Source: Anaerolineae bacterium
Lineage (GTDB): Bacteria; Chloroflexota; Anaerolineae; CG2-30-64-16
Length of the DNA stretch: 64,000 nt
NCBI GenBank assembly: GCA_040766655.1
Contig: JAXGQB010000009.1
Location: forward strand, 114,685-178,684
Reading direction: 5' to 3'
Below, piece by piece: positions 3,372-27,305 of the stretch. The position numbers were made by a program, and so were the translations under genes. The notes below the pieces were generated by a model that was given only the letters and a program-made list of their open reading frames with translations, was not told the origin of the DNA and made no database searches. Within the stretch, counting starts at the first letter, position 1. Each line of letters starts with the position of its first letter.

Positions 3372-3388
3372 CGCTTGCCTCGTCGGAC

Positions 3389-4600: not shown

Positions 4601-4614
4601 CCGGCCATGCTGGC

Positions 4615-8137: not shown

Positions 8138-8898
8138 CAGCCCAGTCCTCGGGCCACAACGCCGACGCCCGAGGCGCCACCGCTGCGGTCTTTCTTGCGC
8201 GCCACCACAATGAAATCGCGCGCGAAGAGCGACGGCCAGCGCCGCGCCAGCCGCGTGTAGAACACACCGGGCAGACCCTGGCGCAGACATGCTGGATAGA
8301 GGCCCTTGACCCGCAGGCTGGCGCTGCCGTCTGTCTCGAGGACGGTCAGGCCACGCGTGGCCAACATACGGGTCACGTCCGGCAGGGTGAAGAATCGCAG
8401 GTGCAGCCAGTCAGTCGGTGTGTTGGGCACGTAAGGAAACCGCCCGCGCAGCACCCACCAACGCACGCGCCAGTGGCCCATGTTGGGCAGCAACAGAAGA
8501 AGCCGGCCGCCGGGCCGCAGCACACGCACCATCTCGTCCAGCGCGTGTTCGGGATCGAAGCGGTGCTCCAGTTGCGAGTCGCTGATGACGACATCAAACT
8601 CGTCATCGGAGAAGGGCAGCGGACCCGCGTCGATCTCGCACTGCCGCGCATCGATGCCGCGTTCGCGCGCCCGCGCCACCGCGACGTTGGAGAGATCGGT
8701 CATGATGATCTGCGCACCTCGGTCGCTGACGAGCCTGGCCAGCCACCCAGGCCCTCCGTCGACCTGGAGGACGCGCTCGCCGGCGCGGACGCGGTCAGCC
8801 AGCAGGCCGAGACGCCTCATATCGACCCGAACCTTGCCCTCTTCCTTCTGCTGCCAGTAGTTGTCGTAGAATCGAACGAAGTCCATACAATCACTCAC
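8137..8898 (-). CDS. Class I SAM-dependent methyltransferase
   Basis: 253 aa. Motif I VLQVDGGPGWLA and the Methyltransf_11-type region LRPGGRLLLLLPN. Confidence 0.8.
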   Translation of the reverse strand: MSDCMDFVRFYDNYWQQKEEGKVRVDMRRLGLLADRVRAGERVLQVDGGPGWLARLVSDRGAQIIMTDLSNVAVARARERGIDARQCEIDAGPLPFSDDEFDVVISDSQLEHRFDPEHALDEMVRVLRPGGRLLLLLPNMGHWRVRWWVLRGRFPYVPNTPTDWLHLRFFTLPDVTRMLATRGLTVLETDGSASLRVKGLYPACLRQGLPGVFYTRLARRWPSLFARDFIVVARKKDRSGGASGVGVVARGLG

Positions 8899-11563
8899 CG
8901 AGAAGAATCAAGGGCAAATAGACGCGACCATGGCCCGTCGGCGTGTAAGTCGCCGTAGGCGACGACGTCGGCGTGTAAGTCGCCGTGGGCGACGACGTCG
9001 GCGTGTAAGTCGCCGTAGGCGACGACGTCGGCGTGGGCGTAGGCTCATCCAACGTATAGATTACGGTCAAGAGCGGGCGCCGGTCGATGGTCCCTCCCTC
9101 CGCGGAGGCAATAGACATTCCTGCCCACGCACGGCCGTAGAGCCCATCCAACATGTCCACCCGCAAGGTCAGGCCGCGGTTGGTCGCTGGATCTACCACC
9201 CAACCCCGGACGATCTCCGTCACGTCGAAACCGTAACGATCGGCGATCTGCGCCGAAGGATAGATCATGCGCAGATCGGCCAGCTGCCCCGCGCGGTCGA
9301 GCGGGACGTTGCCTGCACCGGGCTGGGCCCACAGGGTGCTTGCGTCCGCGTTCCGCCAGGTAGCCTCGCTCACCGTCCACGGTCGCACGATCGCATCGAC
9401 CGCCAGCGGCAGGGCCCTGGTCGGGTAGCCGGTGAAGGCAACGCTCAAGGTGGCAAATCGAATGCTGGCGTCCTCAGGCAGCGAGGACAGGTCATACCGC
9501 AGGAGCCCGACATGGTTCGGAGTGTCGCCGTTTACTCTCAGCGCCAGAGTTGAGGCGGAGGCGAAAGGCGTATCGGGATTCCATTCGCTGAGATACGTGT
9601 CCTCCGCCCCGGTGTAGCCTCCCACGCCCCGGCGCAGGTTCAGGACCTGCGTATTGGGAACCTGTCCCCCGGCGGTCAGCTTGAAGAGATAGCTGCCCTG
9701 CGGCACGATCACTTGGAGCTTGCCGTCGTTCGCGGTCGGGTACGTTTGCAGGAACGTGCCGTCGTCCTTACCGACGCGTTCGACCGCGTAGACACCGGTC
9801 GCCGGCAGGCCGATGCGTGTCAGGTCGAATGTCAGGATGACGTTCATGTTCTGCGGCGCGGGCACACCCAGGTCGGACGGATCGCCGCTCTGCGGCTTCA
9901 TGTTCTCGACCGCGGCCTCGATGGTGCGATCCACGCGGCTGTACCGGGCGCCTGACACACCCAGCCAGTGCGCCTCGCTCAACGCAACCTCCGACATCTG
10001 CGCGCTGATCCAGAAGTGCGACCAGGGTTCCTCACCGGGCTTGGGCGCGCCGGCCCAGTCCACCGCGAAGTTAAGTTCCTCAGGCGCTTCGCCCGACTGC
10101 CGGCTGAACTGCGATAGCCAGGTGAGCTGAGTCTCGGCAAACCCGGCGCCGTCGATGCGGTCGTTGTGGACACCGGGGAAGTAGGTGCGCTCGACGTGAT
10201 CCGGGTTCGTCAGGAGTACACGGCGGTATAGATCCTGCGCGTGCCGCGGCAGCACCGTGACATCGCTCTCCGGATGCAGAATCCACAAGGGCAGGTGCTG
10301 ATAGTTGGCCGCCCACCGCACGGGCGAGCGGCGCTCGTACTCGAAGGGGTAGTCCGCAGGAACGCGCTGCTGAGCAGGCGAGTGATTGGGCTGGCTGTAG
10401 GTTCCGGTCTCGGTGCGGATGGCGTAGTTGACAGAGGTGTTCGGCGTCGCGCCAAGATCCGCAGGATCGGAGTTGGTCTCATCTTCCCAGGCGATCAGGT
10501 CGGTCGGGCTGCTGTCCGCAACGACCGCTGCGAACCTGTCCGTCCATCGCGCTCCGGCCAGCAGGGCGGTCATGCCGCCCATCGAGTGGCCGACCAGGTA
10601 GATGCGCGTGGGATCGACGTTGTAGTTGGCCTGCATGTAGTTCAGAATATCAAGAATATCCCATTGTGACGCACGTGATCCAAACGTGCGCTTGCCGATC
10701 CCCGGCTCCGGCAGGCCTGTGGCATAGTCGGGCACGTAGAAGGGATTCCAGACCTCGCCATGGAAGTCGGCCGACGCCATCAGCCAGCCGCGCGCCGCTG
10801 CCGCATGGTGATAGTCGAACATCACATCGACCCCGTCACTGCCAAAGCCATGCGCTGCAATCAGAAGCGGCGCCGGTGTATCGCCGCGATAGTCCGGCGG
10901 CACCATGATGTGCGTCCACGTCCCCTCGTCCTGATAACTGCTCCAGTTGTTGAAGTAGGTGCTGGGAATGGTTACTTGCGTGTAATGGCGCCCGTCCACC
11001 CCGATGCCGGTCACCTCAATCTGCGCGCGGCTGATGCCCCAACTGCTATCGTCTGTGAGGCTCGGATCGATCTCGATGCGTAGGGTGTTGAAGGCGTGGT
11101 TGCGGAGGATCGATGGATCGCCAATCGGCCAGCTGAACGGTTCCCGCCCTTTGAAGCCACGGCACTGAGTCTCCGTATTGTGCTGTCCTGTCGCATTGCC
11201 GATCAGCACGCCGTTGACTTTGATGAGGTGGCCCTTGATGCTGTTCGCATTGAACTCGTACCCCACCAGGCGGGCCGCTGTGATCGTCCCGGTCCAGGAG
11301 AGGTAGACATCCCGTTCGTAAACATTGGGCGACGTACTCTGGCCGAGGTATGCGCTGCCCACCTGGAGGCAGGGGACTACCGATGAGGTCGCTGAGTTAA
11401 CTGCATACTGCCCAGCCGGCGTGGCGACGGCAGCGCGCGGTGCAAGCGCAAAGAGCCATAGCAACACAAACAGCCAGCCGGCACTGAGGTGGCGGCTGGC
11501 GCGAATGCGATGGGGAGCATGCAGTGGCTTACGCAGCAATCGTGGCGTCGAACCAACGGTCAT
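8891..11563 (-). CDS. Secreted multidomain alpha/beta-hydrolase (GHSMGG nucleophile elbow) with N-terminal beta-sandwich and C-terminal DNRLRE-like domain, PT-rich repeats and hydrophobic tail
   Basis: 890 aa. Signal peptide (WLFVLLWLFALAPRAAVA) and serine-hydrolase motif IYLVGHSMGGMTALLAG. The C-terminal region (LLRYDLSSLPEDASIRFATLSVAF...RPWTVSEATW) resembles the DNRLRE-type carbohydrate-associated domain. The protein ends TPTSSPTATYTP x3 ...GHGRVYLPLILLGE. Confidence 0.75.
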   Translation of the reverse strand: MTVGSTPRLLRKPLHAPHRIRASRHLSAGWLFVLLWLFALAPRAAVATPAGQYAVNSATSSVVPCLQVGSAYLGQSTSPNVYERDVYLSWTGTITAARLVGYEFNANSIKGHLIKVNGVLIGNATGQHNTETQCRGFKGREPFSWPIGDPSILRNHAFNTLRIEIDPSLTDDSSWGISRAQIEVTGIGVDGRHYTQVTIPSTYFNNWSSYQDEGTWTHIMVPPDYRGDTPAPLLIAAHGFGSDGVDVMFDYHHAAAARGWLMASADFHGEVWNPFYVPDYATGLPEPGIGKRTFGSRASQWDILDILNYMQANYNVDPTRIYLVGHSMGGMTALLAGARWTDRFAAVVADSSPTDLIAWEDETNSDPADLGATPNTSVNYAIRTETGTYSQPNHSPAQQRVPADYPFEYERRSPVRWAANYQHLPLWILHPESDVTVLPRHAQDLYRRVLLTNPDHVERTYFPGVHNDRIDGAGFAETQLTWLSQFSRQSGEAPEELNFAVDWAGAPKPGEEPWSHFWISAQMSEVALSEAHWLGVSGARYSRVDRTIEAAVENMKPQSGDPSDLGVPAPQNMNVILTFDLTRIGLPATGVYAVERVGKDDGTFLQTYPTANDGKLQVIVPQGSYLFKLTAGGQVPNTQVLNLRRGVGGYTGAEDTYLSEWNPDTPFASASTLALRVNGDTPNHVGLLRYDLSSLPEDASIRFATLSVAFTGYPTRALPLAVDAIVRPWTVSEATWRNADASTLWAQPGAGNVPLDRAGQLADLRMIYPSAQIADRYGFDVTEIVRGWVVDPATNRGLTLRVDMLDGLYGRAWAGMSIASAEGGTIDRRPLLTVIYTLDEPTPTPTSSPTATYTPTSSPTATYTPTSSPTATYTPTGHGRVYLPLILLGE
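8937..9043. repeat. 30-bp near-perfect tandem repeat x3.5 (gtcggcgtgtaagtcgccgt[a/g]ggcgacgac), encodes TSSPTATYTP x3 of the hydrolase C-terminus
   Basis: Copies at 8937-8966, 8967-8996 and 8997-9026, then a partial copy. A single substitution distinguishes the copies. Confidence 0.85.
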
Positions 11564-11729
11564 ATCGGGTGTCTCAACCGAGCCCTGGTCTCTGAGGCTA
11601 TCGTGAGAGTTGAAATATCAATATACCACAGAGGCATACCGCGACCAAATCAACCCAGTTGTTCAGGGTTTATGGGGGCGGTCAATCCTGGAGAAGGATA
11701 GGTTGCGGGCATGAATGAGGGATGAACAG

Positions 11730-11773
11730 CCGCCGGGGGAGATGTGAAGCTTCTTTCACATCTCCCCCGGCGG
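11730..11773 (-). terminator. GC-rich hairpin (19-bp perfect stem ccgccgggggagatgtgaa/ttcacatctcccccggcgg, 6-nt loop) 50 nt downstream of the BNR gene stop
   Basis: Perfect inverted repeat read directly. There is no clean U-tract, so it is a terminator or RNA-stability element. Confidence 0.4.
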
Positions 11774-11824
11774 ATCATGAACCGAGAGGTTGCCAGCCGC
11801 AGCTGGCTGCCGGCCGACGGCGGC

Positions 11825-13501
11825 TTAGCGCAACAGCAGCGGCAAGAACAGGAATCTTGTCGTCGGAGTCGGCGTCGGCTCCAACTGATACGGCACATCG
11901 AGGGTTACATCCTCGCCGGCAGTGGCCGAGAAGGCGATTTCATCCCCAGCAGGAACATATCCGGCCGGCCCGGCCATGTGGGCCAGCGCGTAAGTGCCGG
12001 GCTCCACCGACGTAAAGGCGTACACGCCATCGTCTCCTGACTCAGTGACGTAGACCGAGACGTCGTTCTGGCGGAGCGCGAGGGAGGCGCCCTTAAGCCC
12101 ATCTTCGCCCGAGTCCCGCACACCATCCTCATCCTCGTCATGGAAGACGACGCCCTGAACCGCGGCCAATGCGGGTGTTGCGCTGGGCGTCGGACTCGGC
12201 GTCTCCGTGGAGGTTGGGGTCGGACTCGGCGTCGCGGTGCCCGTCGGCGTCGGACTCGGCGTCTCCGTCGGTGTTTCCGTGCTGGTCGGCGTCGCAGTCG
12301 GCGACACGGTCCCAGTCGTCGGTGTGCTGGAAGGCGTGGGTGTCACTTCGTCGCCCATCGTACCGTGCCAGATATTGCCTTCCCAGTCGACCGCGTAGAC
12401 ATCGTTCATCGAGAAGACCCACAGATCCGTCAGACCTGGATTCTTGCCGGACTCCAGCACGGGCGCGGGCACAGGGCTCCAGTTGTGTCCATCGGTGGTC
12501 ATGAAGACGATCCCAGGGGTCGTGCACTTCTCATCGTCGAACGCCACCGTGTCACAGCCGACCGCATACCCATGCTCGTTGTCCACCATCTGGACGTCCC
12601 ACAGGTGGCCCTTCTTCGGCATGTCGGGTATCGAGGGGCGAATCCACGTCTTGCCGCCATCCTCTGTGTAGAGCATCGGGTTGAACGGTGACGAGGCTCC
12701 ATCATCCACACGATGGCCCACCATCCAACAGGTGTTAGCATCGGTGCAGCTCATGCCATAGAATCGGCCCGAGTTGGCGGTCCCCACCGGCATCCGGGTC
12801 CAGGTGCGCCCGTAGTTGGTCGACCTGTACATCTGGTTCTTAGCGGCACTGTTGCAGACGCCCCCGGGCAGGCATTCGATGTCCCATTGTACGAGCGTCA
12901 GGCCGACGACGATCTTTGTGAAGCTGGTTCCGTTGATGGAACGCAGGAAGTTGGCATTCAGAGCGGTGTCTACCGCGTAGCCAGTCGTACCCACCAGCAC
13001 GGCCAGTTGGTCCCGGGCCACCTCGGTGGACCAGAAGAAACCGCCGTATCCGGGATTGGGCAGCTGGGTCCACGTCGTGCCGCCATCCGCCGTGGCCCAA
13101 ATCTGGTTCGTGCCGGCCACCCAGCACTGCAGAGCATCCTTGCACGCGATGCCCATCATGTAGTGGCGGGATCCGGGAATCTTCTGCGTGACCCAAGTCA
13201 GGCCGCCGTCGGTCGTCTTGGCAAAACTGGACGGTCCCGTGGCCTTGTCCCAATGATCCCCGCCCACTGCGTAGCCGATCTTATCATCGACGAACGTGAG
13301 CCGGTTCCAGCGAACGCCCTGCGCGCTGTGCACTTTCGTCCATTGCAGCACGTCTTCCGATTGGCTGACAGATGAGGCCACGCTCACGGGGCTGGCTGTC
13401 AGAACCGTCGAAACGGCAAGCAGCACGGCAAGAAGCGCTCCGACGAATAGTAACCGTCGGGGGCCGCCCGCGTGATGAGTCGTTTCATGTCTCATGGTCA
13501 A
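11825..13501 (-). CDS. Secreted BNR/Ycf48-like beta-propeller protein with PT-linker, SdrD-B/Cna-B-like domain and PT + hydrophobic C-terminal tail
   Basis: 558 aa. Signal peptide. Repeated [ST]xDGGxTW motifs (TTDGGLTW, ATADGGTTW, STNYGRTW, YTEDGGKTW). PT-rich linker TPTPSSTPTTGTVSPTATPTSTETPTETPSPTPTGTATPSPTPTSTETPSPTPSATP. SdrD-B-like segment VVFHDEDEDGVRDSGEDGL...GTYAL. Ends EPTPTPTTRFLFLPLLLR. Confidence 0.75.
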   Translation of the reverse strand: MTMRHETTHHAGGPRRLLFVGALLAVLLAVSTVLTASPVSVASSVSQSEDVLQWTKVHSAQGVRWNRLTFVDDKIGYAVGGDHWDKATGPSSFAKTTDGGLTWVTQKIPGSRHYMMGIACKDALQCWVAGTNQIWATADGGTTWTQLPNPGYGGFFWSTEVARDQLAVLVGTTGYAVDTALNANFLRSINGTSFTKIVVGLTLVQWDIECLPGGVCNSAAKNQMYRSTNYGRTWTRMPVGTANSGRFYGMSCTDANTCWMVGHRVDDGASSPFNPMLYTEDGGKTWIRPSIPDMPKKGHLWDVQMVDNEHGYAVGCDTVAFDDEKCTTPGIVFMTTDGHNWSPVPAPVLESGKNPGLTDLWVFSMNDVYAVDWEGNIWHGTMGDEVTPTPSSTPTTGTVSPTATPTSTETPTETPSPTPTGTATPSPTPTSTETPSPTPSATPALAAVQGVVFHDEDEDGVRDSGEDGLKGASLALRQNDVSVYVTESGDDGVYAFTSVEPGTYALAHMAGPAGYVPAGDEIAFSATAGEDVTLDVPYQLEPTPTPTTRFLFLPLLLR

Positions 13502-13551
13502 TTAACTCCTAGGTTGTAGTGTGGTGTTTGCTGAGGCATCGATGCCACATA

Positions 13552-14250
13552 TCAGGCGCGTTGCCCCATCACCTTTGCGGGCACCCCCGCGACGATTGCG
13601 CCCGCAGGGACGCTGTGCGTGACGACCGCACCTGCACCCACGACCGCACCCGCGCCGATGGTCACGCCATCCAGGACGATGACGCCATATCCGAGCCAGG
13701 CGCCATCCCCGATCACGATGTCACCGCTGCTGTGCAGCGGCTGGCGAGTGATCGGCTGGCCAGCCGCGATGCCGTGCTCGTATGGATAGAAGGCACAGGC
13801 CGGCGCGATCTGCACCTCACGGCCGATTCGAATGCTGCCCACCCACGCAACCAACTGGCAGTAGGACTGAATGTGGGTGTGTGCGCCGATCTCGACGCAG
13901 CCGCCCTGGCCTGCCTCCACGATCGTGCCGCGATAGAGGTGAGCGCTGTCGCCCAGGCTGACATGCCGGCCGCCACTGCGGTTGTAGATGACAACGTCGT
14001 CGTCGACGAAGCAGTGCGCGCCCAGGCGCAAGTCGTTGCATACGATGTCGGCCTCGGGCGAGACAAAACCATGCACACTGCGTTGAGCGAGCAGACGCCG
14101 ACCCCTGAACCGCGGCACGGCCCAGGTTGCCAGCCGGGTCGCCAGACGTCCCCCGCGCCCCAGGCCGGCGCGCGCCATCCAGAAGTTGATCCAAAGATCA
14201 CGCGGCGCCCGCATGAAGCACTCCTCCATACCAGGCCACTGCCTCGGCAA
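13552..14250 (-). CDS. Left-handed beta-helix (hexapeptide-repeat) sugar O-acyltransferase
   Basis: C-terminal hexapeptide repeats IVIGDGAWLGYGVIVLDGVTIGAGAVVGAGAVV...VPAGAIVAGVPAKVMG. The real start may be M8/M13 (14229/14214). It overlaps the rSAM::SDR gene end by 17-53 nt. Confidence 0.8.
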   Translation of the reverse strand: MPRQWPGMEECFMRAPRDLWINFWMARAGLGRGGRLATRLATWAVPRFRGRRLLAQRSVHGFVSPEADIVCNDLRLGAHCFVDDDVVIYNRSGGRHVSLGDSAHLYRGTIVEAGQGGCVEIGAHTHIQSYCQLVAWVGSIRIGREVQIAPACAFYPYEHGIAAGQPITRQPLHSSGDIVIGDGAWLGYGVIVLDGVTIGAGAVVGAGAVVTHSVPAGAIVAGVPAKVMGQRA

Positions 14251-16486
14251 ATGCGGCTCGCAGGTCCGATTGGGGCATGCCCAGCTCGGCGATTGCCCGG
14301 CCAGGATCGGCCGTCAACGCCGCGGGCGAACCACTGAACTTCGGAGCATCGCTTGCCCGTAGTACCGGCCTCCCCGCGACGTCGGCTACCAGGGCCAAGA
14401 ATGTCGCCCGGTCCAGATTGCCTTCGCGATGGCCCAGGATGTAGATGGCGCTGGGCCGGCCACGCTCTGCCGCAAGCAAGATGCCCGCTGCGATGTCGCG
14501 CACGGGCGCGAAGTTGATGCCTCCGGGCGGATAAGCCATCACCTCGCCGCTCAGTGCTGCCAGGATGCGCCTGCCAGTCGCGCTCGGCTTTGCATCGCCT
14601 GCGCCCACCGGCGCGGTCGGCTTGACGATCACGACCTCCAGGCCATCTCCCTGCCAGCTTAGTGCTACCAGCTCGCCCAGCAGCTTCGACCGGACGTAGC
14701 CGCTCGCCTGTTCCCATCCCCCGAACGGCGTGTCTTCGTCAGGCAGCGATCTCCCATCGGGAGGCCGCCCCACCGTACCGATCGTGCTGGTATGAACCAC
14801 GCGGCGAACGCTGTAACGAGCACACGCAGCGAGCAGCCGGTCCGTCCCCCGCACGTTCACATCATACAGGGCATCCGGCCCACCGGACGTCGAATATAGC
14901 GCAGCAAGATGAAAACAAGATGTACATCCGTCGAGCGCAGATTGCCAGCCTTCAGACTGGCAAAGGTCACCCCGCAGGATGTCCACGCGCAGTTCACCCA
15001 AGACACCCAGTTCGCTCTCCGGCCGTACGAGTGCTACCACCGAGGCGCCCGCGTCGACCAGCGCGCGGGCAACGTAGCCGCCCAGGAAACCGTTGCCGCC
15101 GGTGACGAAGACACGCTGACCGCGCAGAGGAGCAACCACCGGGAGCGCCGTCGCGCCGGGCGCGGCGGGTGCCGAAGTAGCTAACGGCCGCGCCGCCGGA
15201 CGGATACGGTGCACGAGCGCCGCGACACGTTCACGCCAATGCCAGGCCGGCGGCCGGACGACGTCTTCCAGCTGCCGCAGGATCTGTGGGGTGGCCCGTG
15301 GACCTTGCGGCTCCAGATCGACGCCGGGATGCGCCTCGTAAGTCTTGGCTCGCACGGCCGTCCGCCGCGGCAGGCGCTGCAGGACGCGCCGGGTCAGTTC
15401 CAGTGAGCCGCGGGCCTGCCCGGGCAGGCCTGCCATGACGAAGACCTGGCACGCCATGCCCAGCCGCTCGCACGTCCGGGCCACCCGCACGACCTCGGCC
15501 GTGTATTCCGCTGCACCGGCCTGCGATAGCCTGCCCAGCCGCAGAAGGAGTTCTCCATCGCCACTTTCAAATCCGATCTTGACGGTGGTGCAGCCGGCTG
15601 CAGCCAGCAATCGGAGCAGGTCGTCGGTGAATTGCTCGGGCCGAGACTCGCAGGCAAACCGCGGCCGCAGGCCACGGGCCAGGATGCCCTCGCAGATGGC
15701 GGCAACCCGCGCCGGGTCGTGTGCGAAGACTGGATCGCGGACCTGGATGCGGGCGTTGCCGGTCGTCTCACACGTCCACGCCAGTTCCTCGACCGTGCGC
15801 GCCGCGCTCTGGGCCCGAAATCGCTTCCCCTGCGGCACAACGTAGGCGCACCAGGCGCAGCCGGCCGGACAGCCGCGGGCGCTGAGCAGCGAGGCCGCGC
15901 CGTATGGCCGCCAATCGACCAGCGACCACTGCGGCATGGGGAGTGCGTCGAGATCGCCGACCAGGTTGCCGTCGTCGTAGCGAGCCGGTGCAAGGTCGCG
16001 GGCGAGTAGCACGCCGCGGCGGCCGACCATCACGGCCGAAGCTGCGTCGGCCAGCGCTGCCTCCGGCTCTCCGATCAACGCAGCGTGAGCCAGCCCCTCG
16101 GCCAGCAGGGGCTCGGCCACGAACGCGGCCGAGGGGCCGAGCAACAGGATGGGCCGCTCGCAGCCGGCGTCTCGCAGACGCCGCAGGAAGTGTCCGTCGG
16201 CCAGTCGCGTGCCGTGGCTCACCAGGACCGCCACGAGGCCCGGACTCCGCTCGACGATCCACTGGCTGGCTGCGTGCGGGTTCAGCCTGGCTCCGACCGC
16301 GTCCATCACAGCCACGCGCTGCCCTGACTGTTGCGCGGCTGCGGCACAGAGGGCGACCGTGTGGGGCGCGTACAGGAAGACGTGCTTGCCTGCGGTGAGC
16401 GCGCCCATGCCGGACGTCGCCTCGTGATGCGAGACGATCGTGCCCAGGCTGGGCGGGACCACGAGGCACAGATCAGGAGCCGTCAT
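14198..16486 (-). CDS. Fusion protein: B12-binding-like/radical SAM domain (CxxxCxxC) + NAD(P)-dependent epimerase/dehydratase (SDR) domain
   Basis: 762 aa in a single frame. The N-terminal Rossmann-like domain is followed by the rSAM cluster motif RGCPAGCAWCAY. An Ala/Pro linker (PAARPLATSAPAAPGATALPVVAP) follows. The SDR domain has GxxGxxG (VFVTGGNGFLGGYVARAL) and a YxxxK catalytic dyad (YVRSK). Confidence 0.8.
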   Translation of the reverse strand: MTAPDLCLVVPPSLGTIVSHHEATSGMGALTAGKHVFLYAPHTVALCAAAAQQSGQRVAVMDAVGARLNPHAASQWIVERSPGLVAVLVSHGTRLADGHFLRRLRDAGCERPILLLGPSAAFVAEPLLAEGLAHAALIGEPEAALADAASAVMVGRRGVLLARDLAPARYDDGNLVGDLDALPMPQWSLVDWRPYGAASLLSARGCPAGCAWCAYVVPQGKRFRAQSAARTVEELAWTCETTGNARIQVRDPVFAHDPARVAAICEGILARGLRPRFACESRPEQFTDDLLRLLAAAGCTTVKIGFESGDGELLLRLGRLSQAGAAEYTAEVVRVARTCERLGMACQVFVMAGLPGQARGSLELTRRVLQRLPRRTAVRAKTYEAHPGVDLEPQGPRATPQILRQLEDVVRPPAWHWRERVAALVHRIRPAARPLATSAPAAPGATALPVVAPLRGQRVFVTGGNGFLGGYVARALVDAGASVVALVRPESELGVLGELRVDILRGDLCQSEGWQSALDGCTSCFHLAALYSTSGGPDALYDVNVRGTDRLLAACARYSVRRVVHTSTIGTVGRPPDGRSLPDEDTPFGGWEQASGYVRSKLLGELVALSWQGDGLEVVIVKPTAPVGAGDAKPSATGRRILAALSGEVMAYPPGGINFAPVRDIAAGILLAAERGRPSAIYILGHREGNLDRATFLALVADVAGRPVLRASDAPKFSGSPAALTADPGRAIAELGMPQSDLRAAFAEAVAWYGGVLHAGAA

Positions 16487-16498
16487 GCTACGAAAGCC

Positions 16499-18112
16499 TC
16501 AACCGTTGATCCGGTACACCACTGTCGCGGCGCCATTGGTAAAGGTCCTCAGATAGGTCACCTCGGCAGGAGCCGTCTCGGGTTGCAGCAGAAAACTGAA
16601 TTGGGGGCGGAACCTGGTCACTTCGTTCTCGTCGACCACCAGGTAGCGCGCGCCGTGTGCCCGCCCGTACGCCAGCAGCTCCTCCCAGGTCGCGTTGGGG
16701 CTGGTGACCGACTGACGATGCGCGTACAGTCCGACCTCGGTGCTGCGCGTCATGATGACGTCGTCTGTCGCGCTGATCGATTCGAGCCAGCGGCCGGCCT
16801 CCTTGTGGCTCCACGACATGTGCGCCAGGCCGGCCTGAAGCTGCAACAGCCCCAGCCAGAGGCAGAAGGTGAGCGTCAGCGCGACGGGCAGCGCACCAGC
16901 GGCGGTCCTGAGCCAACCGGCCAACCGCGGCCTGAGCGCTCCCAGCGATTGGGCCACCCATGAGGAAAGATGCACCAGCCCTCCTGCGGCCCAAATCAGC
17001 CCGATGGGCAGCGCGGCGATCAGAAACCGGTCGATGACAAAGTAGACCCAGAAACTGGTCATGGGCAGCAGCGTCGCCACTAGTAACCCTTCCTGCCACC
17101 AGCGGCGCCGATCCCACGGCCGGGCAAAAAGCCCAACGGCGGCCAGGGCCACGATCCACGGCGTGAAGAGCGTCTGGTGGAACAGCGCATCCCAAGTGGC
17201 GGACATGTTCTTGCGCACGTAGAAGAAGAAGCGCCGCGGGTTGTCGAGCACGTAAGCGCTAAACTTCCGCTCAAAGCGCTCCGGCGAAAACCACATCACC
17301 TCGCGGCCCGTGGAATCGAGGCGCGAGACCGCCAGATCGTGCGCGGCCTGGTCGTCTGCAATATACGCAGGTGCGATGTCGAGTATGATTCCCGTCTTGC
17401 CGCTGAGCATCCATGCACCGCTGGTGCGGTGGAGGAAGAGCACGTAGGGGCTCATCACTGCGAGGCAGACTACAACCGCAAGGGAGAGCCGCACGAAGGT
17501 GGTCAGGCGCCAGAAGCTGCGATGCGCCAGGTGCCACACCACCATGAAGAGGCCCAGCGCGGCGAAGGAGACCAGGCCCTCCGGCCGGGTCAGGTAAGCC
17601 AGGCCGAGACACAGGCCGACCGCGGCGTACCACATGACCCTGCCGCTCTGCAGCGACCGGTGAACCGCCCACACGCCCGCAAAAACGGCCAGCAGGAACG
17701 GCGACTCGGTCATCGTGCCCCAAAGGAACGGCTGCGCCGCAAGCGCCGGATACACCGCCACGAGCAAAGCTGCCACGAGGCCTGCACGGCTGCCGTAGAG
17801 CGCCCGCGCCAGCAGGTACACGGGGATGCACAGCAACGCACCGGTGACGATGTGGATCGTGGACGTCGCCCATTCGGGGGTGAAGCCCACCTTAATCAAC
17901 GCCGCAGAGAGGAGCGGCAGGACGGGCGGCAGATGCATGTCGGTCATGCCCGCGCGCGAGGTATAGCCCAGTCCCTCGACCAGGTTGCGCGCGATCAACA
18001 GGTGTCCCGCCTCGTCCCAGCGCACCAGGCGGGGCAAGGTAGCGTAGATCAGGCGAAGTACCGCCGCCATCAGCACCGTCACCGCAAGAGCCAGTCGTTC
18101 ATGCCGCCCCAT
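16499..18112 (-). CDS. Glycosyltransferase family 39 / ArnT-PMT-like GT-C membrane glycosyltransferase
   Basis: 537 aa, polytopic. It has the first-loop DE motif (RWDEAGHLLIARN) typical of GT39/GT83 enzymes that use polyprenyl-phosphate-sugar donors. Confidence 0.8.
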   Translation of the reverse strand: MGRHERLALAVTVLMAAVLRLIYATLPRLVRWDEAGHLLIARNLVEGLGYTSRAGMTDMHLPPVLPLLSAALIKVGFTPEWATSTIHIVTGALLCIPVYLLARALYGSRAGLVAALLVAVYPALAAQPFLWGTMTESPFLLAVFAGVWAVHRSLQSGRVMWYAAVGLCLGLAYLTRPEGLVSFAALGLFMVVWHLAHRSFWRLTTFVRLSLAVVVCLAVMSPYVLFLHRTSGAWMLSGKTGIILDIAPAYIADDQAAHDLAVSRLDSTGREVMWFSPERFERKFSAYVLDNPRRFFFYVRKNMSATWDALFHQTLFTPWIVALAAVGLFARPWDRRRWWQEGLLVATLLPMTSFWVYFVIDRFLIAALPIGLIWAAGGLVHLSSWVAQSLGALRPRLAGWLRTAAGALPVALTLTFCLWLGLLQLQAGLAHMSWSHKEAGRWLESISATDDVIMTRSTEVGLYAHRQSVTSPNATWEELLAYGRAHGARYLVVDENEVTRFRPQFSFLLQPETAPAEVTYLRTFTNGAATVVYRING

Positions 18113-19235
18113 GCTGCGAAACCCCCGGATCCTCCGGCCCCTCGGGCCGGCGAAGATACCTTCTCAACGAGAAGCCTTCCCGCCATGCGAAGAACATGCC
18201 TGCAACGGTCACCGGCACGATCTGAAGCAGGTGAATCACCATGATCGCACTGAGGGCTACGCCGGGTGCAATGCCCGCTGGTCCGCCCACCAGGCCCAGC
18301 GACGCCACACCGACGAACTCGAAGGACCCGACGTAGCCTGGCGCTGCCGGGATCGCGCTGCTCAGTCCGACCGCGCTGACTGCGAAAAAGGCTTCTGCGA
18401 TGCCCAGCGGCAGGTCGAATGCCCTGAAGATCCAGAAGTACTGCAGCGCGCTGCACGACCAGGCCAGCAACCCGATGAGAATGGCACGGACCAGGAGCTT
18501 AGGGCTGCGGAGGGCGCCCGCACCCGTGGTGAATTGGACCAACACAGCCCGGACCCTGTCCATCAGTGGCGCCTGACGGCCGTGCGCCGCCAGCCACGCA
18601 TCCACCCGGCCGCCGCCGACCAACAGGGCGATCAGCGCCACCAGCACGCCGACGAACAGCGCGGTGAGGCTCACCAGGCCGGCGACCAGCCAATCGGGGA
18701 GCACTAAGAAGCGGGAGGCCACCAGGAGGATCGCGACCGTAGTCAGGCCATCCAGCACGCGTTCGGTGGCGATGCTGCCCAGCGCCGCACTCCCGGTGAT
18801 ACCACGCCGGGCAAGCAGTGCAGCGCGTACGAGCTCCCCCATGCGGGCCGGCAGCAGCATGTTGCTCATGTAGCCGGTGGTCGTGACCGGGTAAAGCTCC
18901 CGCCACCTGACCGTCCGCACGGGGCTCAGCAACACGCGCCACCGCCACGTCCGCACGCCGAGGTCGACGAAGTACGTGACAACCGCCGGAACCAGGTACC
19001 AGAGGTTCGCCTGGCGCAGGGCTGCCACAACGTCGGCCACGTGGATCTGGCGCACGGTCAGCCACAGCAGGAATCCACTCACCAGCACGCCGACCAACAC
19101 CTGGACGACGCGTGGTCCCGCGGCTCGCCGTCCGACCGGCCGATCTACCGTAGCGGGATGTGGAATCATGCGGTGACGCCGTGCGGGCAAGAGTGAACGA
19201 TATCGGGGGACCCGGCGCAGATGTAACGCATTCAC
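18099..19235 (-). CDS. Flippase-like / lysyl-phosphatidylglycerol-synthase-TM-region-like (UPF0104) membrane protein
   Basis: 378 aa with about 8 TM helices. This architecture is commonly paired with DPM-like GT2 and GT39 genes. The N-terminal 20-40 aa of the ORF may be read-through, and an alternative start lies near 19169. Confidence 0.6.
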   Translation of the reverse strand: MNALHLRRVPRYRSLLPARRHRMIPHPATVDRPVGRRAAGPRVVQVLVGVLVSGFLLWLTVRQIHVADVVAALRQANLWYLVPAVVTYFVDLGVRTWRWRVLLSPVRTVRWRELYPVTTTGYMSNMLLPARMGELVRAALLARRGITGSAALGSIATERVLDGLTTVAILLVASRFLVLPDWLVAGLVSLTALFVGVLVALIALLVGGGRVDAWLAAHGRQAPLMDRVRAVLVQFTTGAGALRSPKLLVRAILIGLLAWSCSALQYFWIFRAFDLPLGIAEAFFAVSAVGLSSAIPAAPGYVGSFEFVGVASLGLVGGPAGIAPGVALSAIMVIHLLQIVPVTVAGMFFAWREGFSLRRYLRRPEGPEDPGVSQHGAA

Positions 19236-19366: not shown

Positions 19367-20893
19367 TTGGCCCAGTTGGTGTACAATGCGGACCGAATGG
19401 AGACGCGAGAGAGCCAAATGCCCGACAGCCACCTGTTGTTTCGCCGGCAGTTCCTCATGACACCTGAACCCTGCCCCGAGCTGGACCACTGGCAGCAGGC
19501 ACGCGTGGGCGGTCACATCGTTTACGCCCACCCCGACGTACAACTCACCAGTGCGACGGCGGCCGCGGGAGGCGTGACTGCCGTCGCCGTGGGCTTCATG
19601 CTCGATCCGGAGTTCCCCGCACGCTCGAATGCGGAAGTGCTGCAGGCGATCGCGGACATGGATGGCTCAGTCGAGCGCATCAGCCGCTACCTTGACGCTG
19701 TGTCCGGGCGCTTCGTCCTGATCGTCGCCACCCCCGACGACGTCGTGATCTTCCACGATCCTTGCGGCTTTCGCACGGTGTGCTACACGACTCACGGGGG
19801 CAGGGTCTTCGCCGGCTCCCAGCCGCTAATCTTCAAGCTGGTTATGCCGCTCGGGGAGGGTGAGCGCTTCGAGTCCTACACCCAATCGGACTACGTCATG
19901 ACGCACCGGGAGCACTGGATCCCCAGTGGGTGCACCCTGTTCGAGGGCGTGTCGCACCTGGTGCCCAATCACTACCTACGTCTCTCCACGCTCGAGCAGA
20001 CGCGCTATTGGCCGCGCCGCCCGCTCGTTCAGCAGCCGGCGGCCCAGGTCGCGACACAGGCCGCCGGCCTCCTGCAGAGGCTCATGCTGGCTGCCGACAC
20101 CCGGTTCCCCCTGGCACTGCCGCTGACAGCCGGCTGGGACTCGCGCACGATCCTGGGCGCGTCGCGGGCCATTGCCGGCGCACTGCACTACTTCACACTG
20201 CAGTACCGCGACCTGCATCCCGGCGCCAACGACATCCGGATCCCGGCCAGGCTCCTGCAGGCGCTCGGGCTCCGGCACCAGGTCATCGATTGTAACCGCC
20301 CCGTGCCGGAGTGGTTCCAGGCGCTCTACGAGCATCACGTGTCGCCCGTGCATATGGATGATTATGGACTGATGGCTTACGCCATGTTCGAGGAGTATCC
20401 TGCCCGAAGGGTATGCATCAAGGGCAACTGCTCGGAGATCGCGAGGTGTTTCTACTACAAGAACGGGACGCATCCGGCCATTACGTCCCCCCACCAGATC
20501 GTGGCGCGGGTCAAGGGCTGGCACAGCGTGCCGCTCGCTCAGGAACAGGTCACGGCGTGGTACGAGCAGGCCCATGGGGTGGCCGCCGAAGCGAACGTGG
20601 AGATCTTGGACCTCTTCTATTGGGAACACCGGATGGGCAGCTGGCAGGCGTTCGCGCAGGTCGAGTGGGATATCGTCCAGGACGCCTTCACGCCCTTCAA
20701 TCACCGCGGCCTGCTTGAGCTTCTGCTGAGCACCTCTGCCGAGCTAAGATGCGCCCCCAACTACCCACTGTACCGGATGATCATCGAATCGCTGTGGCCG
20801 GAGGTGCTGAGCCAGCCGGTCAACCCGCTTACGGCGAGGGAACGCCTGCAGATGTTACTGGGGAAGCGTCATCCGGCGTCATCGCGCGGGTAA
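19367..20893 (+). CDS. Asparagine-synthetase-B-like PP-loop ATP pyrophosphatase homolog lacking the N-terminal Cys nucleophile
   Basis: 508 aa. AsnB N-domain-like segment RFVLIVATPDDVVIFHDPCGFRTVCYTTHGGRVFAGSQPLIF (compare RDRFGIKPLYY...FASE). Degenerate PP-loop LTAGWDSRTILGAS (SGGxDS-like). There is no MCG start. It is the only plus-strand gene inside the glycan locus. Confidence 0.6.
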   Translation: MAQLVYNADRMETRESQMPDSHLLFRRQFLMTPEPCPELDHWQQARVGGHIVYAHPDVQLTSATAAAGGVTAVAVGFMLDPEFPARSNAEVLQAIADMDGSVERISRYLDAVSGRFVLIVATPDDVVIFHDPCGFRTVCYTTHGGRVFAGSQPLIFKLVMPLGEGERFESYTQSDYVMTHREHWIPSGCTLFEGVSHLVPNHYLRLSTLEQTRYWPRRPLVQQPAAQVATQAAGLLQRLMLAADTRFPLALPLTAGWDSRTILGASRAIAGALHYFTLQYRDLHPGANDIRIPARLLQALGLRHQVIDCNRPVPEWFQALYEHHVSPVHMDDYGLMAYAMFEEYPARRVCIKGNCSEIARCFYYKNGTHPAITSPHQIVARVKGWHSVPLAQEQVTAWYEQAHGVAAEANVEILDLFYWEHRMGSWQAFAQVEWDIVQDAFTPFNHRGLLELLLSTSAELRCAPNYPLYRMIIESLWPEVLSQPVNPLTARERLQMLLGKRHPASSRG

Positions 20894-21681
20894 GTGCGAA
20901 TGACTCGAGGCGCGTAGTGCCGGCTCAGGACATCCACCAGTTGAACCTGAAACTGGCGCGCAGGGCGGATGGCCGTCTTGTGGAGGAAGTACCGGAACAT
21001 GACGCGCACGGTGCTGAGACCGTAGATCACGCTGCGCCGGAAGTTGACAGACGAGGCCTCGGCGAAGTAGCGGGTCGGCACCGCAATCTCGCCGATCCGG
21101 AAGCCGAACGCCACCACCTGGGCGATGACTTCGGTGTCGAACACGAAGTCGTCGGAGTTCAGAAGGAAGGGGATCGTCTCGAGGACCTGGCGGCTGTACG
21201 CGCGAAAGCCGGTATGGCATTCCGACAGGCGCTGGCCTAGCACGAGATTCTCGATCGCGGTCAGCGAGCGGTTGGCCACGTACTTCCACTTGGGCATCCC
21301 GCCGGCCAGGGTGCCACCGCTGAGCAGCCGCGAGCCCATCATCATGTCCGCCTCGCCACGCCGGATGGGTGCAATCAAGTCGGGAATCAGCGTCGAATCA
21401 TACTGATAGTCGGGATGGAGCATCACGACGATATCCGCGCCATCCTGCAGCGCCTCGATGTAACACGTCTTCTGGTTGCCGCCATAGCCGCGATTCTGGA
21501 TGTGCACCACGACCTTGAGTCCCAACCGCTGCGCGATCTCCACAGTCGTGTCGTGGCTCACGTCGTCCACCAGGATCACCTTGTCCACGACATCGTGCGG
21601 AATGTCGTTGTACGTCTTCTCCAACGTGCGCGCAGCATTGTACGCCGGCATCACGACGATCACCTTCAGATCATCTGCCAT
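20869..21681 (-). CDS. GT2 polyprenol-phosphate glycosyltransferase (dolichyl-phosphate mannose synthase-like)
   Basis: Start MADDLKVIVVMPAYNAARTL...ILVDDVSHDTT (DxD). DPM1/Ppm1-like. The ORF-track frame extends to 21768. Confidence 0.85.
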   Translation of the reverse strand: MADDLKVIVVMPAYNAARTLEKTYNDIPHDVVDKVILVDDVSHDTTVEIAQRLGLKVVVHIQNRGYGGNQKTCYIEALQDGADIVVMLHPDYQYDSTLIPDLIAPIRRGEADMMMGSRLLSGGTLAGGMPKWKYVANRSLTAIENLVLGQRLSECHTGFRAYSRQVLETIPFLLNSDDFVFDTEVIAQVVAFGFRIGEIAVPTRYFAEASSVNFRRSVIYGLSTVRVMFRYFLHKTAIRPARQFQVQLVDVLSRHYAPRVIRTYPRDDAG

Positions 21682-21782
21682 GCAATCACCCAACTCCTGT
21701 CCGAGATGCACCCGATCGACCGTGGCGCACGCCGGGACTCGTACAGATTCGCCGATAGGCAGCACCACTCAAGGCGCACAAT

Positions 21783-23219
21783 TCACCGCTCCGCCACATA
21801 GTAACGCAGGATCACCCACACGAGGGCCAGCACAAGCCCACAGGGGGGCAGCACGCGTGCGGTCCACGCCAACGCCCTCTCGGGCGGCTGCCATCTGGCC
21901 CGCAGGCTCCGCGGCCACAGGTTCCGTAACAGCAGGAAAGCCAACGGCGCGACAGGGATGAAGTATCGCCCTTGGGCGCGGTTGATGCTCCCGGCCGCCA
22001 TCCTCGTCCACAGGACGAACTGGCTCGTGATGACCATAACCACCGATGCAGTCAGCACCCCAAAAACTATAACCCATTGCCAACGGGTCAGCTTCAACCA
22101 CGGGCCATCGAACACCGCCAAAGCCGCGAGCGCGAGCACCTCGATCGCCACCCATGCAAGCGGCAGCGGCGTGTCCAGCCATCCCAGTATACCCACAAAG
22201 CTGTGGACATAGAAGAACCCATAGTAGTACAGATTGCCGGCCAGCTTGCGGACGAACAGGAGCGGGTGATCCAGGATAAACTGGAATGCCGCATCAAATG
22301 AAGGATACCCGCCCCGATAGAACGGCACAAAGACCTCGGACGAGATCCGAGTCCAGAGCGCAAAGCTGGCGAGTCCGGCTGCGATGACCAGGAGGGCTGC
22401 GACCAGATAGGCGCGCCGGCTTCTGGCTTTGCCGGCCGGCACGAGAAAGATGAGAAAAGCCAGGGGAAAGTAGGCGCTCTTGCTGGCCGCAACCAGTGCA
22501 GCGAGCAGCGCCAGCAGCCCTACACGCGGAGGTGTCAGGCAACGTCGATCGTCGAAGGCGAGCGCGAGGACCAGGGCGGTGAAGAGCAGCGCCAGGCCGT
22601 TGGTCGCCGCATCGGGCGACAGGGACGCCATCTGGAAGACTGTCATCGGGAGCAGGCCGATAAGAAGGAAACCCTGCCTGAAGATGGGCGTGATGCGGAT
22701 TGCCATACCGATCAGCAGGATCGATACGAACAGGTTGGCCAGGCGCCCGATGTAGAGCAGCCACAGCGGGGAGAGCTCGAATTGCCGGCCAGCCCAGACC
22801 GCCAGGGCCTGGGGCAGGTAGGGGATGAAGCTGTAGATCGCCGTGTTGGGAAAGCTCACGAAAGCCGTGCGGGTTGGGTCCAACGGGACGGGAAGCGCGT
22901 TGCGGATGGCGACAGGATCGGCCTTGTTCTCCGGGTGGAACGGAATGTCGCCGGATAGGGCCTCGACCACATCGACCAGGCTGACGGGCAGGACGCCACC
23001 CGCACTGCCGTCCCGCCTTTCGGCGAAGAGCCGGCCCTGTGCAATTTGGTAAGTGCGATAGAAGTGAACTGGTTCGTCCGGCACCTGGAAGGGCGGCGTG
23101 ATGAACACGAACAGGATTCCGAACGCGAGACCCACTGCTGCGAACCATCGTAGCAGCGCGGCGCCAGCGCGCCCGGTCGCGGCCGTTCCGTCCTTGCCCA
23201 TCATATCGCTGCGTACCAT
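21783..23219 (-). CDS. DUF2142-like polytopic membrane protein (putative GT-C-type glycosyltransferase)
   Basis: About 12 TM helices. First-loop PDEP motif (FQVPDEPVHFYRTYQIAQG). Start MVRSD at 23217-23219, preceded by a GAGGGAAG RBS. The ORF-track frame extends to 23396. Confidence 0.5.
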   Translation of the reverse strand: MVRSDMMGKDGTAATGRAGAALLRWFAAVGLAFGILFVFITPPFQVPDEPVHFYRTYQIAQGRLFAERRDGSAGGVLPVSLVDVVEALSGDIPFHPENKADPVAIRNALPVPLDPTRTAFVSFPNTAIYSFIPYLPQALAVWAGRQFELSPLWLLYIGRLANLFVSILLIGMAIRITPIFRQGFLLIGLLPMTVFQMASLSPDAATNGLALLFTALVLALAFDDRRCLTPPRVGLLALLAALVAASKSAYFPLAFLIFLVPAGKARSRRAYLVAALLVIAAGLASFALWTRISSEVFVPFYRGGYPSFDAAFQFILDHPLLFVRKLAGNLYYYGFFYVHSFVGILGWLDTPLPLAWVAIEVLALAALAVFDGPWLKLTRWQWVIVFGVLTASVVMVITSQFVLWTRMAAGSINRAQGRYFIPVAPLAFLLLRNLWPRSLRARWQPPERALAWTARVLPPCGLVLALVWVILRYYVAER

Positions 23220-23289
23220 ATGGCTTCCCTCGCCGCATGTGTGCTCTGCGGACGTCGCGTTTGGAGCCATCCGCATGACCTCCGCCCAG

Positions 23290-25026: not shown

Positions 25027-25037
25027 CAAAACGTCCC

Positions 25038-27249: not shown

Positions 27250-27305
27250 CCAGACCCAGCGTGCGCAGGCGTCCCTTCACGCGCTCCAGCACCCTGCCAG
27301 CCATG

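Follow-up and report, generated by a model that had tools for sequence, protein, structure and literature searches.

AprD4 dehydrates a diol by radical chemistry to give a keto product, which a second protein, the NADPH-dependent reductase AprD3, then reduces. AprD4 was described in 2017 as the only dehydratase among the radical S-adenosylmethionine (SAM) enzymes (PMC5461906), and it does not bind cobalamin (PMC12931638). In the glycosylation field, three-component systems composed of a polyprenyl-phosphate-sugar synthase of family GT2, a flippase, and a GT-C glycosyltransferase are known with auxiliary enzymes (ArnA-D/ArnT, PpgS/Rv3632/Rv3779, DprE1/E2, and Citrobacter ORF12-15), and there is precedent in them for auxiliary short-chain dehydrogenases/reductases (SDRs) that modify the sugar, including one that changes the identity of the donor (PMC11127046). 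Here we analysed a 64-kb stretch of DNA from an Anaerolineae bacterium (contig JAXGQB010000009.1; the whole stretch of 64,000 nucleotides is referred to as the window), in which a single open reading frame (ORF) joined a radical-SAM module to an SDR. We found that this fusion protein is most likely a bifunctional enzyme, soluble and cytoplasmic, that tailors a sugar in a pathway for glycosylation of the cell envelope in Anaerolineales.

The fusion ORF was located at 14198-16486 on the minus strand and consisted of 762 codons plus a TGA stop (14198-14200), with an ATG start and a GAGG Shine-Dalgarno sequence 10 nt upstream of it. The initial annotation, which was made from the letters of the window, had reported this continuous frame of 762 residues without stating its strand; the frame was confirmed, and the quoted motifs were all present (RGCPAGCAWCAY at residues 204-215, TGGNGFLGG at 462-470, and YVRSK at 597-601). 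On the minus strand, the protein comprised an N-terminal Rossmann-like domain recognised by homology to the AprD4 N-domain (residues 1-190; 15917-16486), a radical-SAM core delimited by Pfam and by motifs shared with AprD4 (residues 191-400; 15287-15916), an interdomain linker of variable sequence and predicted disorder (residues ~426-456; 15119-15211), and an extended-SDR reductase domain assigned from Pfam, NCBIfam, and motifs (residues 457-762; 14198-15118). Alignments placed the CX3CX2C motif for the [4Fe-4S] cluster and SAM at C206-C210-C213 (15848-15871). The linker was rich in Ala and Pro as annotated, with 11 Ala and 6 Pro in 37 residues. Both domain assignments held when hidden Markov models were run, as Pfam Radical_SAM (PF04055, residues 203-363) scored 34.0 bits against a gathering cutoff of 29.5 and Epimerase (PF01370, residues 459-685) scored 95.6 bits against 20.9. 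The AlphaFold2 (AF2) model was confident for both domains (pLDDT 86, pTM 0.86); this model and alignment A1 lack the initiator Met, and their residue numbers are 1 lower than those given here. No transmembrane segment was predicted in the fusion, the maximum of the Kyte-Doolittle 19-residue windows being 1.43, and membrane anchoring was rejected for a protein with no hydrophobic segment. The initial annotation knew of no characterised enzyme with this domain order, and searches of NCBIfam, the PDB, and the literature likewise returned no curated family, solved structure, or paper with it; the literature searches also found no characterised AprD4 homologue and no fused form.

The radical-SAM half carried both the CX3CX2C motif and a Pfam score above threshold, placing it in the PF04055 superfamily. 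C206, C210, and C213 were invariant in 20 fusions, 18 radical-SAM-only homologues, and 62 wider relatives. The core shared with AprD4 the motifs RDPVF (residues 250-254), CESRPE (279-284), and IGFESGD (304-310), together with the patterns W.CE(S/T)R, AGC, and G.ESGD, and the N-domain held a conserved HHEATSGMGAL segment (residues 20-30). A profile of the radical-SAM-only family matched AprD4 (PDB 6FD2) with 166.7 bits (E 7e-48) over residues 8-393 of 457, in an alignment that took in the N-terminal domain with its unusual Gly-rich segment, and the same profile gave 51 bits for TsrM and 47 bits for CysS. A genuine HpnJ from locus L075, which scored 753 bits to its own model, reached 112 bits with this profile, versus 165 for AprD4. 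Foldseek aligned the half to AprD4 with a target-normalised TM-score of 0.70. Homology to AprD4 therefore extended over the full-length fold and sequence, including the non-cobalamin Rossmann-like N-domain, and among characterised and structurally solved proteins AprD4 is by a wide margin the nearest to the radical-SAM half.

Of the "B12-binding-like" N-domain claimed initially, the Rossmann-like character and the homology to AprD4 stood, but the cobalamin signature did not. The B12-binding family PF02310 gave no match to the fusion protein even at E<=10, and likewise none to AprD4, whereas HpnJ (30.7 bits), P0135 (57.5 bits), P0072 (73.6 bits), and the radical-SAM protein of locus L027 were positive in the same run. 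A cobalamin-binding domain and class B membership as judged by PF02310 were rejected on this result.

The SDR half showed the TGxxGxxG dinucleotide motif, the Ser/Thr-Tyr-Lys catalytic residues (T566-S567-T568 and Y597xxxK601), and the above-threshold Pfam score of an extended SDR. T566-S567-T568 aligned with CSS of Gox2253 and TSS of the cinnamoyl-CoA reductases (CCRs). Invariant R488, in a post-beta-2 loop reading LVRPES, aligned with LVRPTS of Gox2253 and TVRNPED/TVRNPDD of the CCRs; a basic rather than an acidic residue after beta-2 is the signature of the NADPH-preferring subclass, and from this loop we infer that the half uses NADPH. In NCBIfam, the hopanoid-associated family HpnA (TIGR03466) scored highest with 197.8 bits (cutoff 367.65), ahead of the sterol demethylase SdmB (168 bits) and OleD (85 bits), while GalE (TIGR01179, 45.2 bits versus at least 262) and RmlB (TIGR01181, 26.7 versus at least 365) were far lower. 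The sequence neighbours next after the HpnA-type matches were CCRs and dihydroflavonol reductases (DFRs), and among PDB sequence neighbours the NADPH reductases (Gox2253, CCR, DFR) ranked ahead of epimerases. The domain was therefore rightly called an extended SDR, but not a sugar epimerase/dehydratase; by its sequence relationships it is a reductase of the HpnA/Gox2253/CCR/DFR type rather than a classical nucleotide-sugar epimerase/dehydratase. For the other half, the NCBIfam models of AprD4 diol dehydratase (NF033070, 78-80 bits, E ~1e-22, cutoff 500), "lipid biosynthesis B12-binding/radical SAM" (TIGR04072, 77.7-80.5 bits, cutoff 360), and HpnJ (TIGR03471, 64-66 bits, cutoff 577.6) also remained below membership. 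Equivalog membership in AprD4, TIGR04072, HpnJ, HpnA, and GalE/RmlB was rejected, with every score far under its cutoff.

We further compared the SDR half with genuine HpnA proteins. Its closest relatives outside Chloroflexota (~37-46% identity) were HpnA of hopanoid clusters, and those of L027, L075, and L078 scored 440-498 bits. Squalene-hopene cyclase (SHC) was present in 40 non-Chloroflexota HpnA loci, whereas the window and every Chloroflexota locus lacked SHC, HpnH, and HpnI, and a hopanoid cluster was accordingly rejected for the window. Because its HpnA relatives are hopanoid-clustered and the Chloroflexota loci are devoid of hopanoid genes, the SDR half is, on sequence grounds, an HpnA paralogue recruited into a non-hopanoid context. 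Two of the hopanoid loci deserve mention. In L027, a Methylomirabilota metagenome-assembled genome (MAG; JACRGL010000047), a radical-SAM gene with a B12 domain (415-1728) lay 10 nt upstream of genuine hpnA (1738-2730), which overlapped hpnH (2717-3733); the best matches of this radical-SAM protein were BchE (100 bits) and HpnJ (90 bits), far under the cutoffs. The L027 pair parallels the Chloroflexota fusion and may bear on the function of HpnA. In L075, an Acidobacteriota MAG, positions 6687-15623 held SHC, a minus-strand ORF, HpnA, a 354-residue ORF with no NCBIfam match, HpnJ, and HpnI, so that HpnA adjoined the cyclitol-ether genes.

The two-domain architecture was not peculiar to the window. 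A search of 5.8 billion proteins, with data from NCBI, ENA, JGI, and Logan, recovered ~50 protein clusters with the same architecture at 48-99% identity, and more than 15 independent Anaerolineae MAGs held the same fusion. In a GTDB scan of one genome per species, the gene was confined to MAGs of Anaerolineae, Anaerolineales, or Chloroflexota, with a top match 83% identical, and a 99%-identical ORF of 762 residues was found on the L081 contig from an independent assembly and run. Among 20 aligned fusions, mean identity to the query was 53-60% in the radical-SAM half, 68% in the SDR core, and 32% in the linker, which varied in length and sequence yet stayed in frame throughout. The protein search also returned stand-alone homologues of ~430 residues, named "radical SAM protein", from Anaerolineae/Chloroflexi.

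Gene arrangement in the relatives was read by stop-to-stop ORF analysis of the GTDB-scan loci. In Chloroflexota farther removed from the window, the two halves were encoded by separate genes. The radical-SAM and SDR genes were separated by two PMT_2 paralogues in L022 and L025 and by an acetyltransferase and a hydrolase in L026; they were adjacent but separate in L019-21 and L029, overlapped by 4 nt in L018, were divided by one stop codon in the same frame in L014 and L016, and formed a single fused ORF in the window, L001-L012, L015, and L017. Moreover, tblastn showed that both co-occurred in every Chloroflexota locus with a long enough contig. The series from dispersed to adjacent to fused is a Rosetta-stone fusion of two proteins already in one cluster. 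Two exceptions came from long-read MAGs: at 9977-12341 of L013 the gene was split within the radical-SAM half, and at 9980-12937 of L011 (P0048, 984 residues) it ran on into the acetyltransferase, a run-on easily produced because the fusion and the acetyltransferase share 17 nt that are read in different frames. Homopolymer frame errors are the probable cause in both MAGs.

The genes around the fusion pointed to a glycosylation system. The neighbours reported initially, a GT39 and a hexapeptide acyltransferase in a glycan locus, were both found, the first upstream and identified here at the level of PMT_2/GT-C, the second downstream as a hexapeptide acetyltransferase. The PMT_2-family gene (16499-18112, minus strand, as are all genes described here unless stated; Pfam) stopped 12 nt before the fusion ATG, and an LPG_synthase_TM flippase-like membrane protein (18099-19235; Pfam) overlapped the PMT_2 start by 14 nt. 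Directly downstream, the hexapeptide-repeat (WbbJ/WcaF-like) acetyltransferase gene (13552-14214) began within the last 17 nt of the fusion, with the same overlap in the independent gene call of L081, an arrangement indicative of translational coupling. Because the genes from LPG_synthase_TM to the acetyltransferase overlap or nearly abut, they are suggested to form an operon. Farther upstream lay a GT2 gene of the polyprenyl-phosphate-hexose synthase type (AglJ/PpgS/DPM-like; 20869-21768; Pfam and NCBIfam), whose product matched AglJ, PpgS, and haloarchaeal polyprenyl/dolichyl-phosphate hexose synthases at 70-76 bits and is the likely maker of a lipid-linked donor.

Synteny was assessed by tblastn of the window proteins against all fetched loci. 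The conserved Chloroflexota order was GT2, LPG_synthase_TM, PMT_2, radical-SAM, SDR, and acetyltransferase, and beyond these there were often genes for a BNR/SdrD_B protein and for an alpha/beta-hydrolase that bears a DNRLRE domain. PMT_2 and the acetyltransferase flanked the radical-SAM/SDR genes in nearly all loci, so that PMT_2, radical-SAM, SDR, and acetyltransferase made up the invariant core, and the co-located GT2, flippase-like, and GT-C genes kept their order in L001, L003, L008, L010, and L011. The picture, read from gene content and order, is that of a GT2/flippase/GT-C extracytoplasmic glycosylation system with donor-tailoring enzymes.

Together, these results indicated that the fusion probably tailors a sugar for a GT-C glycosylation pathway by coupling a radical step to an NADPH-dependent one. 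As for the reaction, we tentatively favour, by analogy with AprD4/AprD3, a radical dehydration followed by ketoreduction to give a deoxy-sugar donor for extracytoplasmic glycosylation. That chemistry is favoured because the pair co-occurs, is repeatedly juxtaposed, and is finally fused. In the first step, the [4Fe-4S] cluster held by C206/C210/C213 of the AprD4-like module would cleave SAM, the 5'-deoxyadenosyl radical would abstract hydrogen at a carbinol carbon of the sugar, a hexose or a hexosamine, and the substrate radical would lose the neighbouring hydroxyl (or amino) group to yield a deoxy-keto sugar. Such a step would be of the radical 1,2-diol-dehydratase/lyase class, probably cobalamin-independent, and the same two-step logic would accommodate a DesII-type radical deamination. 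In the second step, the fused HpnA/CCR-type SDR would reduce the ketone with NADPH, resulting in net deoxygenation. From the context, the coupled acetyltransferase would then acetylate the deoxy sugar, and the methyltransferases of sister loci would add further decoration. Before or after tailoring, the GT2 of the cluster would load the sugar onto polyprenyl phosphate; the LPG_synthase_TM-like protein would flip the lipid-linked sugar, and the PMT_2 GT-C enzyme would transfer it outside the membrane. The most specific version of the proposal, a cobalamin-independent radical deoxygenase acting on a polyprenyl-phosphate-linked hexosamine at the cytoplasmic face of the membrane, is doubtful. Anaerolineae are generally anaerobes, which suits an oxygen-labile radical-SAM enzyme.

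Several observations weigh against a radical deoxygenation. Identity between the radical-SAM half and AprD4 was 23-28%, and AprD4 carries a CX3CX3C motif (GCPYPCRFYCPY) where this family has CX3CX2C (GCPAGCAWCAY). The AprD4 model tied at 80 bits with the "ladderane-type lipid" B12-radical-SAM model TIGR04072, and an exhaustive profile search at E<=1e-30 returned 6,213 representatives at 50% identity that are uncharacterised, many of them nearer than AprD4. Reaction type is notoriously plastic in this region of the radical-SAM superfamily. A missing PF02310 match does not prove the absence of cobalamin. The parallel between AprD3 and the SDR half is one of reductase role, not of demonstrated fold family, and HpnA, the nearest named family of that half, has no known function (PMC12583986). 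In the AprD4/AprD3 analogy drawn by the initial annotation, the nearest solved relative, the NADPH-type reductase partner, and the separate halves in related genomes were borne out, while the word "dehydratase" stays an inference at ~80 bits against a cutoff of 500.

A different radical reaction in the same pathway, with the SDR acting before or after the radical-SAM module, is somewhat unlikely. The reaction could be a ring contraction to a carbocyclic cyclitol, as in HpnJ or calditol synthase, or a BtrN-like dehydrogenation that with a reductase amounts to an anaerobic epimerisation analogous to DprE1/DprE2. HpnJ was among the top NCBIfam matches, relatives of the radical-SAM half reached 1e-81 against it, and true HpnA, nearest to the SDR half, stood beside HpnJ-HpnI in L075. 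The substrate of HpnJ is a lipid-linked glucosamine (PMC13459092, PMC9204698), and CE4 deacetylases occurred in 9-10 sister loci, as HpnK precedes HpnJ. However, the family profile preferred AprD4 over HpnJ by the scores given above, and HpnJ retains the B12-binding signature that the fusion family lacks. By our own bookkeeping, moreover, contraction of a glycoside to a cyclitol is redox-neutral and leaves the obligatory fused NADPH reductase unexplained, whereas epimerisation at the cost of SAM would be wasteful when one SDR alone could epimerise.

The initial annotation had offered C-methylation as an alternative, and this was weakened by the N-domain, in which, as in cobalamin-independent AprD4, no cobalamin signature was detectable (PMC12931638). 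A class B cobalamin-dependent C-methyltransferase making a branched or C-methyl sugar, with the SDR as an independent 4-keto-reductase or epimerase fused for co-expression only, is accordingly quite unlikely. It would explain why a Rossmann domain precedes a radical-SAM barrel, which is the class B fold, and why TsrM, MgmA, and CysS came next among the matches by structure or sequence; the superfamily includes sugar C-methylases, GenK for example (PMC9204698), and weak PF02310 matches were seen in family members P0014, P0015, P0050, and P0070 and in L014 (21.6 bits). Yet AprD4 outscored every methylase by more than 100 bits, and ordinary SAM methyltransferases are already encoded in sister loci. 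The strict co-occurrence of the two genes, their repeated juxtaposition, and their fusion argue for consecutive steps rather than independent ones.

It is very improbable that the substrate is a lipid, whether the polyprenol carrier, another isoprenoid, or an alkyl chain, and that the enzyme remodels membrane lipids. The top SDR matches were all to lipid-acting families (HpnA, SdmB, and OleD), TIGR04072 tied as the top radical-SAM match, and P0072 sits within a lipid-type cluster of several radical-SAM genes and an amine oxidase. However, the window and all Chloroflexota loci lacked SHC, HpnH, and every other hopanoid or sterol gene; the invariant partners were a GT-C glycosyltransferase and a sugar-type acetyltransferase, nearer radical-SAM relatives carried fused GT2 glycosyltransferases, and the fusion had no membrane-embedded segment. 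Finally, the chance that two adjacent genes were joined into one long ORF by faulty assembly or sequencing is negligible. Unfused pairs with one stop between them and the frame errors of L013 and L011/P0048 do occur, but the merged-gene or frameshift explanation that the initial annotation wished checked was rejected by the ~50 clusters with the linker always in frame, the independent assemblies, the L081 copy, and the confident AF2 model.

The remaining genes of the string were consistent with a wider glycan locus. Upstream of the GT2 gene lay a DUF2142 membrane protein (21783-23396; Pfam; syntenic in L003), which we take to be a member of the GT-C clan, and a 771-residue ORF (23290-25605) with no Pfam or NCBIfam match. 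The latter was related to PMT_2 by identity (33-37%) to the GT-C protein of L022/L024/L025, the paralogue that parts the radical-SAM and SDR genes in L022/L025, and probably represents a diverged GT-C glycosyltransferase that the models fail to recognise. Downstream of the acetyltransferase were a protein with BNR/sortilin-like and SdrD_B domains (11825-13501; Pfam; syntenic downstream in many loci), which may serve as an acceptor or in processing, and an alpha/beta-hydrolase with a DNRLRE/CBM96 domain (8891-11563; Pfam; syntenic in many loci). On the plus strand, a 508-residue ORF (19367-20893) broke the minus-strand gene string; it had a weak asparagine synthase match (28.5 bits), was conserved at 61-84% in L001 and L003, with the opposite orientation in L003, and may be an amidotransferase-like tailoring enzyme. 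A larger polysaccharide locus on the minus strand, at 811-8290 and 26035-28631 of the window, encoded a GFO/IDH/MocA oxidoreductase, a Wzy_C-type ligase/polymerase, a Wzz-like protein, four GT4-type glycosyltransferases, and a Wzt-like ABC ATPase carrying a Wzt_C domain. A possible methyltransferase was noted at ~8137-8898.

Neighbour candidates in the sister loci were picked by greedy longest-ORF clustering followed by Pfam, a procedure that is noisy in high-GC DNA and in which the L011 run-on ORF merged radical-SAM, SDR, and acetyltransferase. The extra genes recovered were a CE4 polysaccharide deacetylase, a DUF2304 membrane protein, and SAM-dependent methyltransferases. CE4 and DUF2304 partners were found in 9-10 sister loci and were absent from the window, hence outside the invariant core. 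In L004, L008-L013, and L015, a block of CE4, GT2, DUF2304, and MTS-methyltransferase genes stood upstream of the PMT_2-rSAM-SDR core. This hints that in CE4-bearing sister loci the donor is a lipid-linked N-acetylhexosamine deacetylated before tailoring. DUF2304 is presumably the family of Rv3632, the partner of the mycobacterial polyprenyl-P-GalNAc synthase.

Other relatives of the radical-SAM half varied widely in architecture. P0171, P0182, and P0202, nearer to the profile than AprD4 (220-240 bits), carried one or two C-terminal GT2 domains, with or without TPR repeats, and these fusions independently tie this branch of the superfamily to glycans. P0102, P0113, P0115, P0126, P0127, P0130, and others were proteins of 1,300-2,600 residues with 2-5 tandem related radical-SAM domains; P0102 had five Radical_SAM stretches, three B12-binding stretches, and a SPASM domain. 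The B12-positive relative that came nearest in the first protein search, P0072, was encoded in L082 (ENA ERZ24794676, 1-9413) in a row of four B12-radical-SAM paralogues, together with two more radical-SAM genes and an amine-oxidase/phytoene-desaturase-like gene, a cluster resembling the "ladderane-type" lipid clusters behind TIGR04072.

If the proposed chemistry is true, radical sugar deoxygenation reaches beyond antibiotic pathways into primary cell-envelope glycan synthesis, and the fusion would bring GT2/flippase/GT-C systems an auxiliary enzyme of a new kind, as well as being a single-polypeptide catalyst attractive for deoxy-sugar glyco-engineering. Were the substrate indeed a polyprenyl-phosphate-linked hexosamine, lipid-linked donor pathways for GT-C glycosylation would gain their first radical-SAM enzyme. 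Since no paralogue of HpnA is nearer than the reductase half, it would then also follow from the Rosetta-stone link that HpnA reduces a sugar-derived carbonyl made or exposed by a radical-SAM enzyme in hopanoid side-chain biosynthesis. The fusion series itself offers a rare lead on what the HpnA family does. The analysis also flagged a very large unannotated radical-SAM clade (>6,000 representatives at 50% identity) that is repeatedly fused to glycosyltransferases. Anaerolineae are an abundant and mostly uncultured anaerobic lineage. The finding does not overturn a concept, and the fusion is a good biochemical target.

Among known systems, the class B cobalamin radical-SAM enzymes (TsrM, TokK, CysS, MgmA, and GenK) are set apart by the B12-binding Pfam signal that is missing in the fusion and by scores more than 100 bits below that of AprD4. 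HpnJ, the radical-SAM enzyme of the hopanoid cyclitol ether, lies in the same broad "B12-binding-domain" neighbourhood as the radical-SAM half, acts on a lipid-linked glucosamine, and is encoded beside HpnA and a GT2 (HpnI) in L075, but it is more distant than AprD4 (112 versus 165 bits), keeps PF02310, and matches by its own model at 64-66 bits versus a cutoff of 578. HpnA ("hopanoid-associated sugar epimerase", TIGR03466) and Gox2253 (PDB 3WJ7) resemble the SDR half, which scored 198 bits against the HpnA cutoff of 368 and differs in being fused or linked to radical-SAM, GT-C, and acetyltransferase genes with no squalene-hopene cyclase or HpnH nearby; the HpnA name carries no mechanism because the function of HpnA is itself unknown (PMC12583986). 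The locus resembles three-component systems in holding a GT2, a flippase-like protein, and PMT_2, and its flippase candidate is of the LPG_synthase_TM type instead of GtrA, MATE, or EmrE-like. We know of no three-component system that tailors its donor with a radical-SAM enzyme. AprD4/AprD3, the pair for C3'-deoxygenation in apramycin synthesis by Streptoalloteichus tenebrarius, consists of two separate proteins that are encoded in an antibiotic cluster of an actinomycete and have a free pseudodisaccharide as substrate, whereas the fusion is encoded in a Chloroflexota cell-envelope GT-C operon and is distinguished from AprD4 by its identity (23-28%), its NF033070 score (~80 versus 500), and its CX3CX2C in place of CX3CX3C. 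Compared with that pair, the fusion is new in being a single polypeptide, in belonging to another phylum and another type of pathway, and in lying below every membership threshold.

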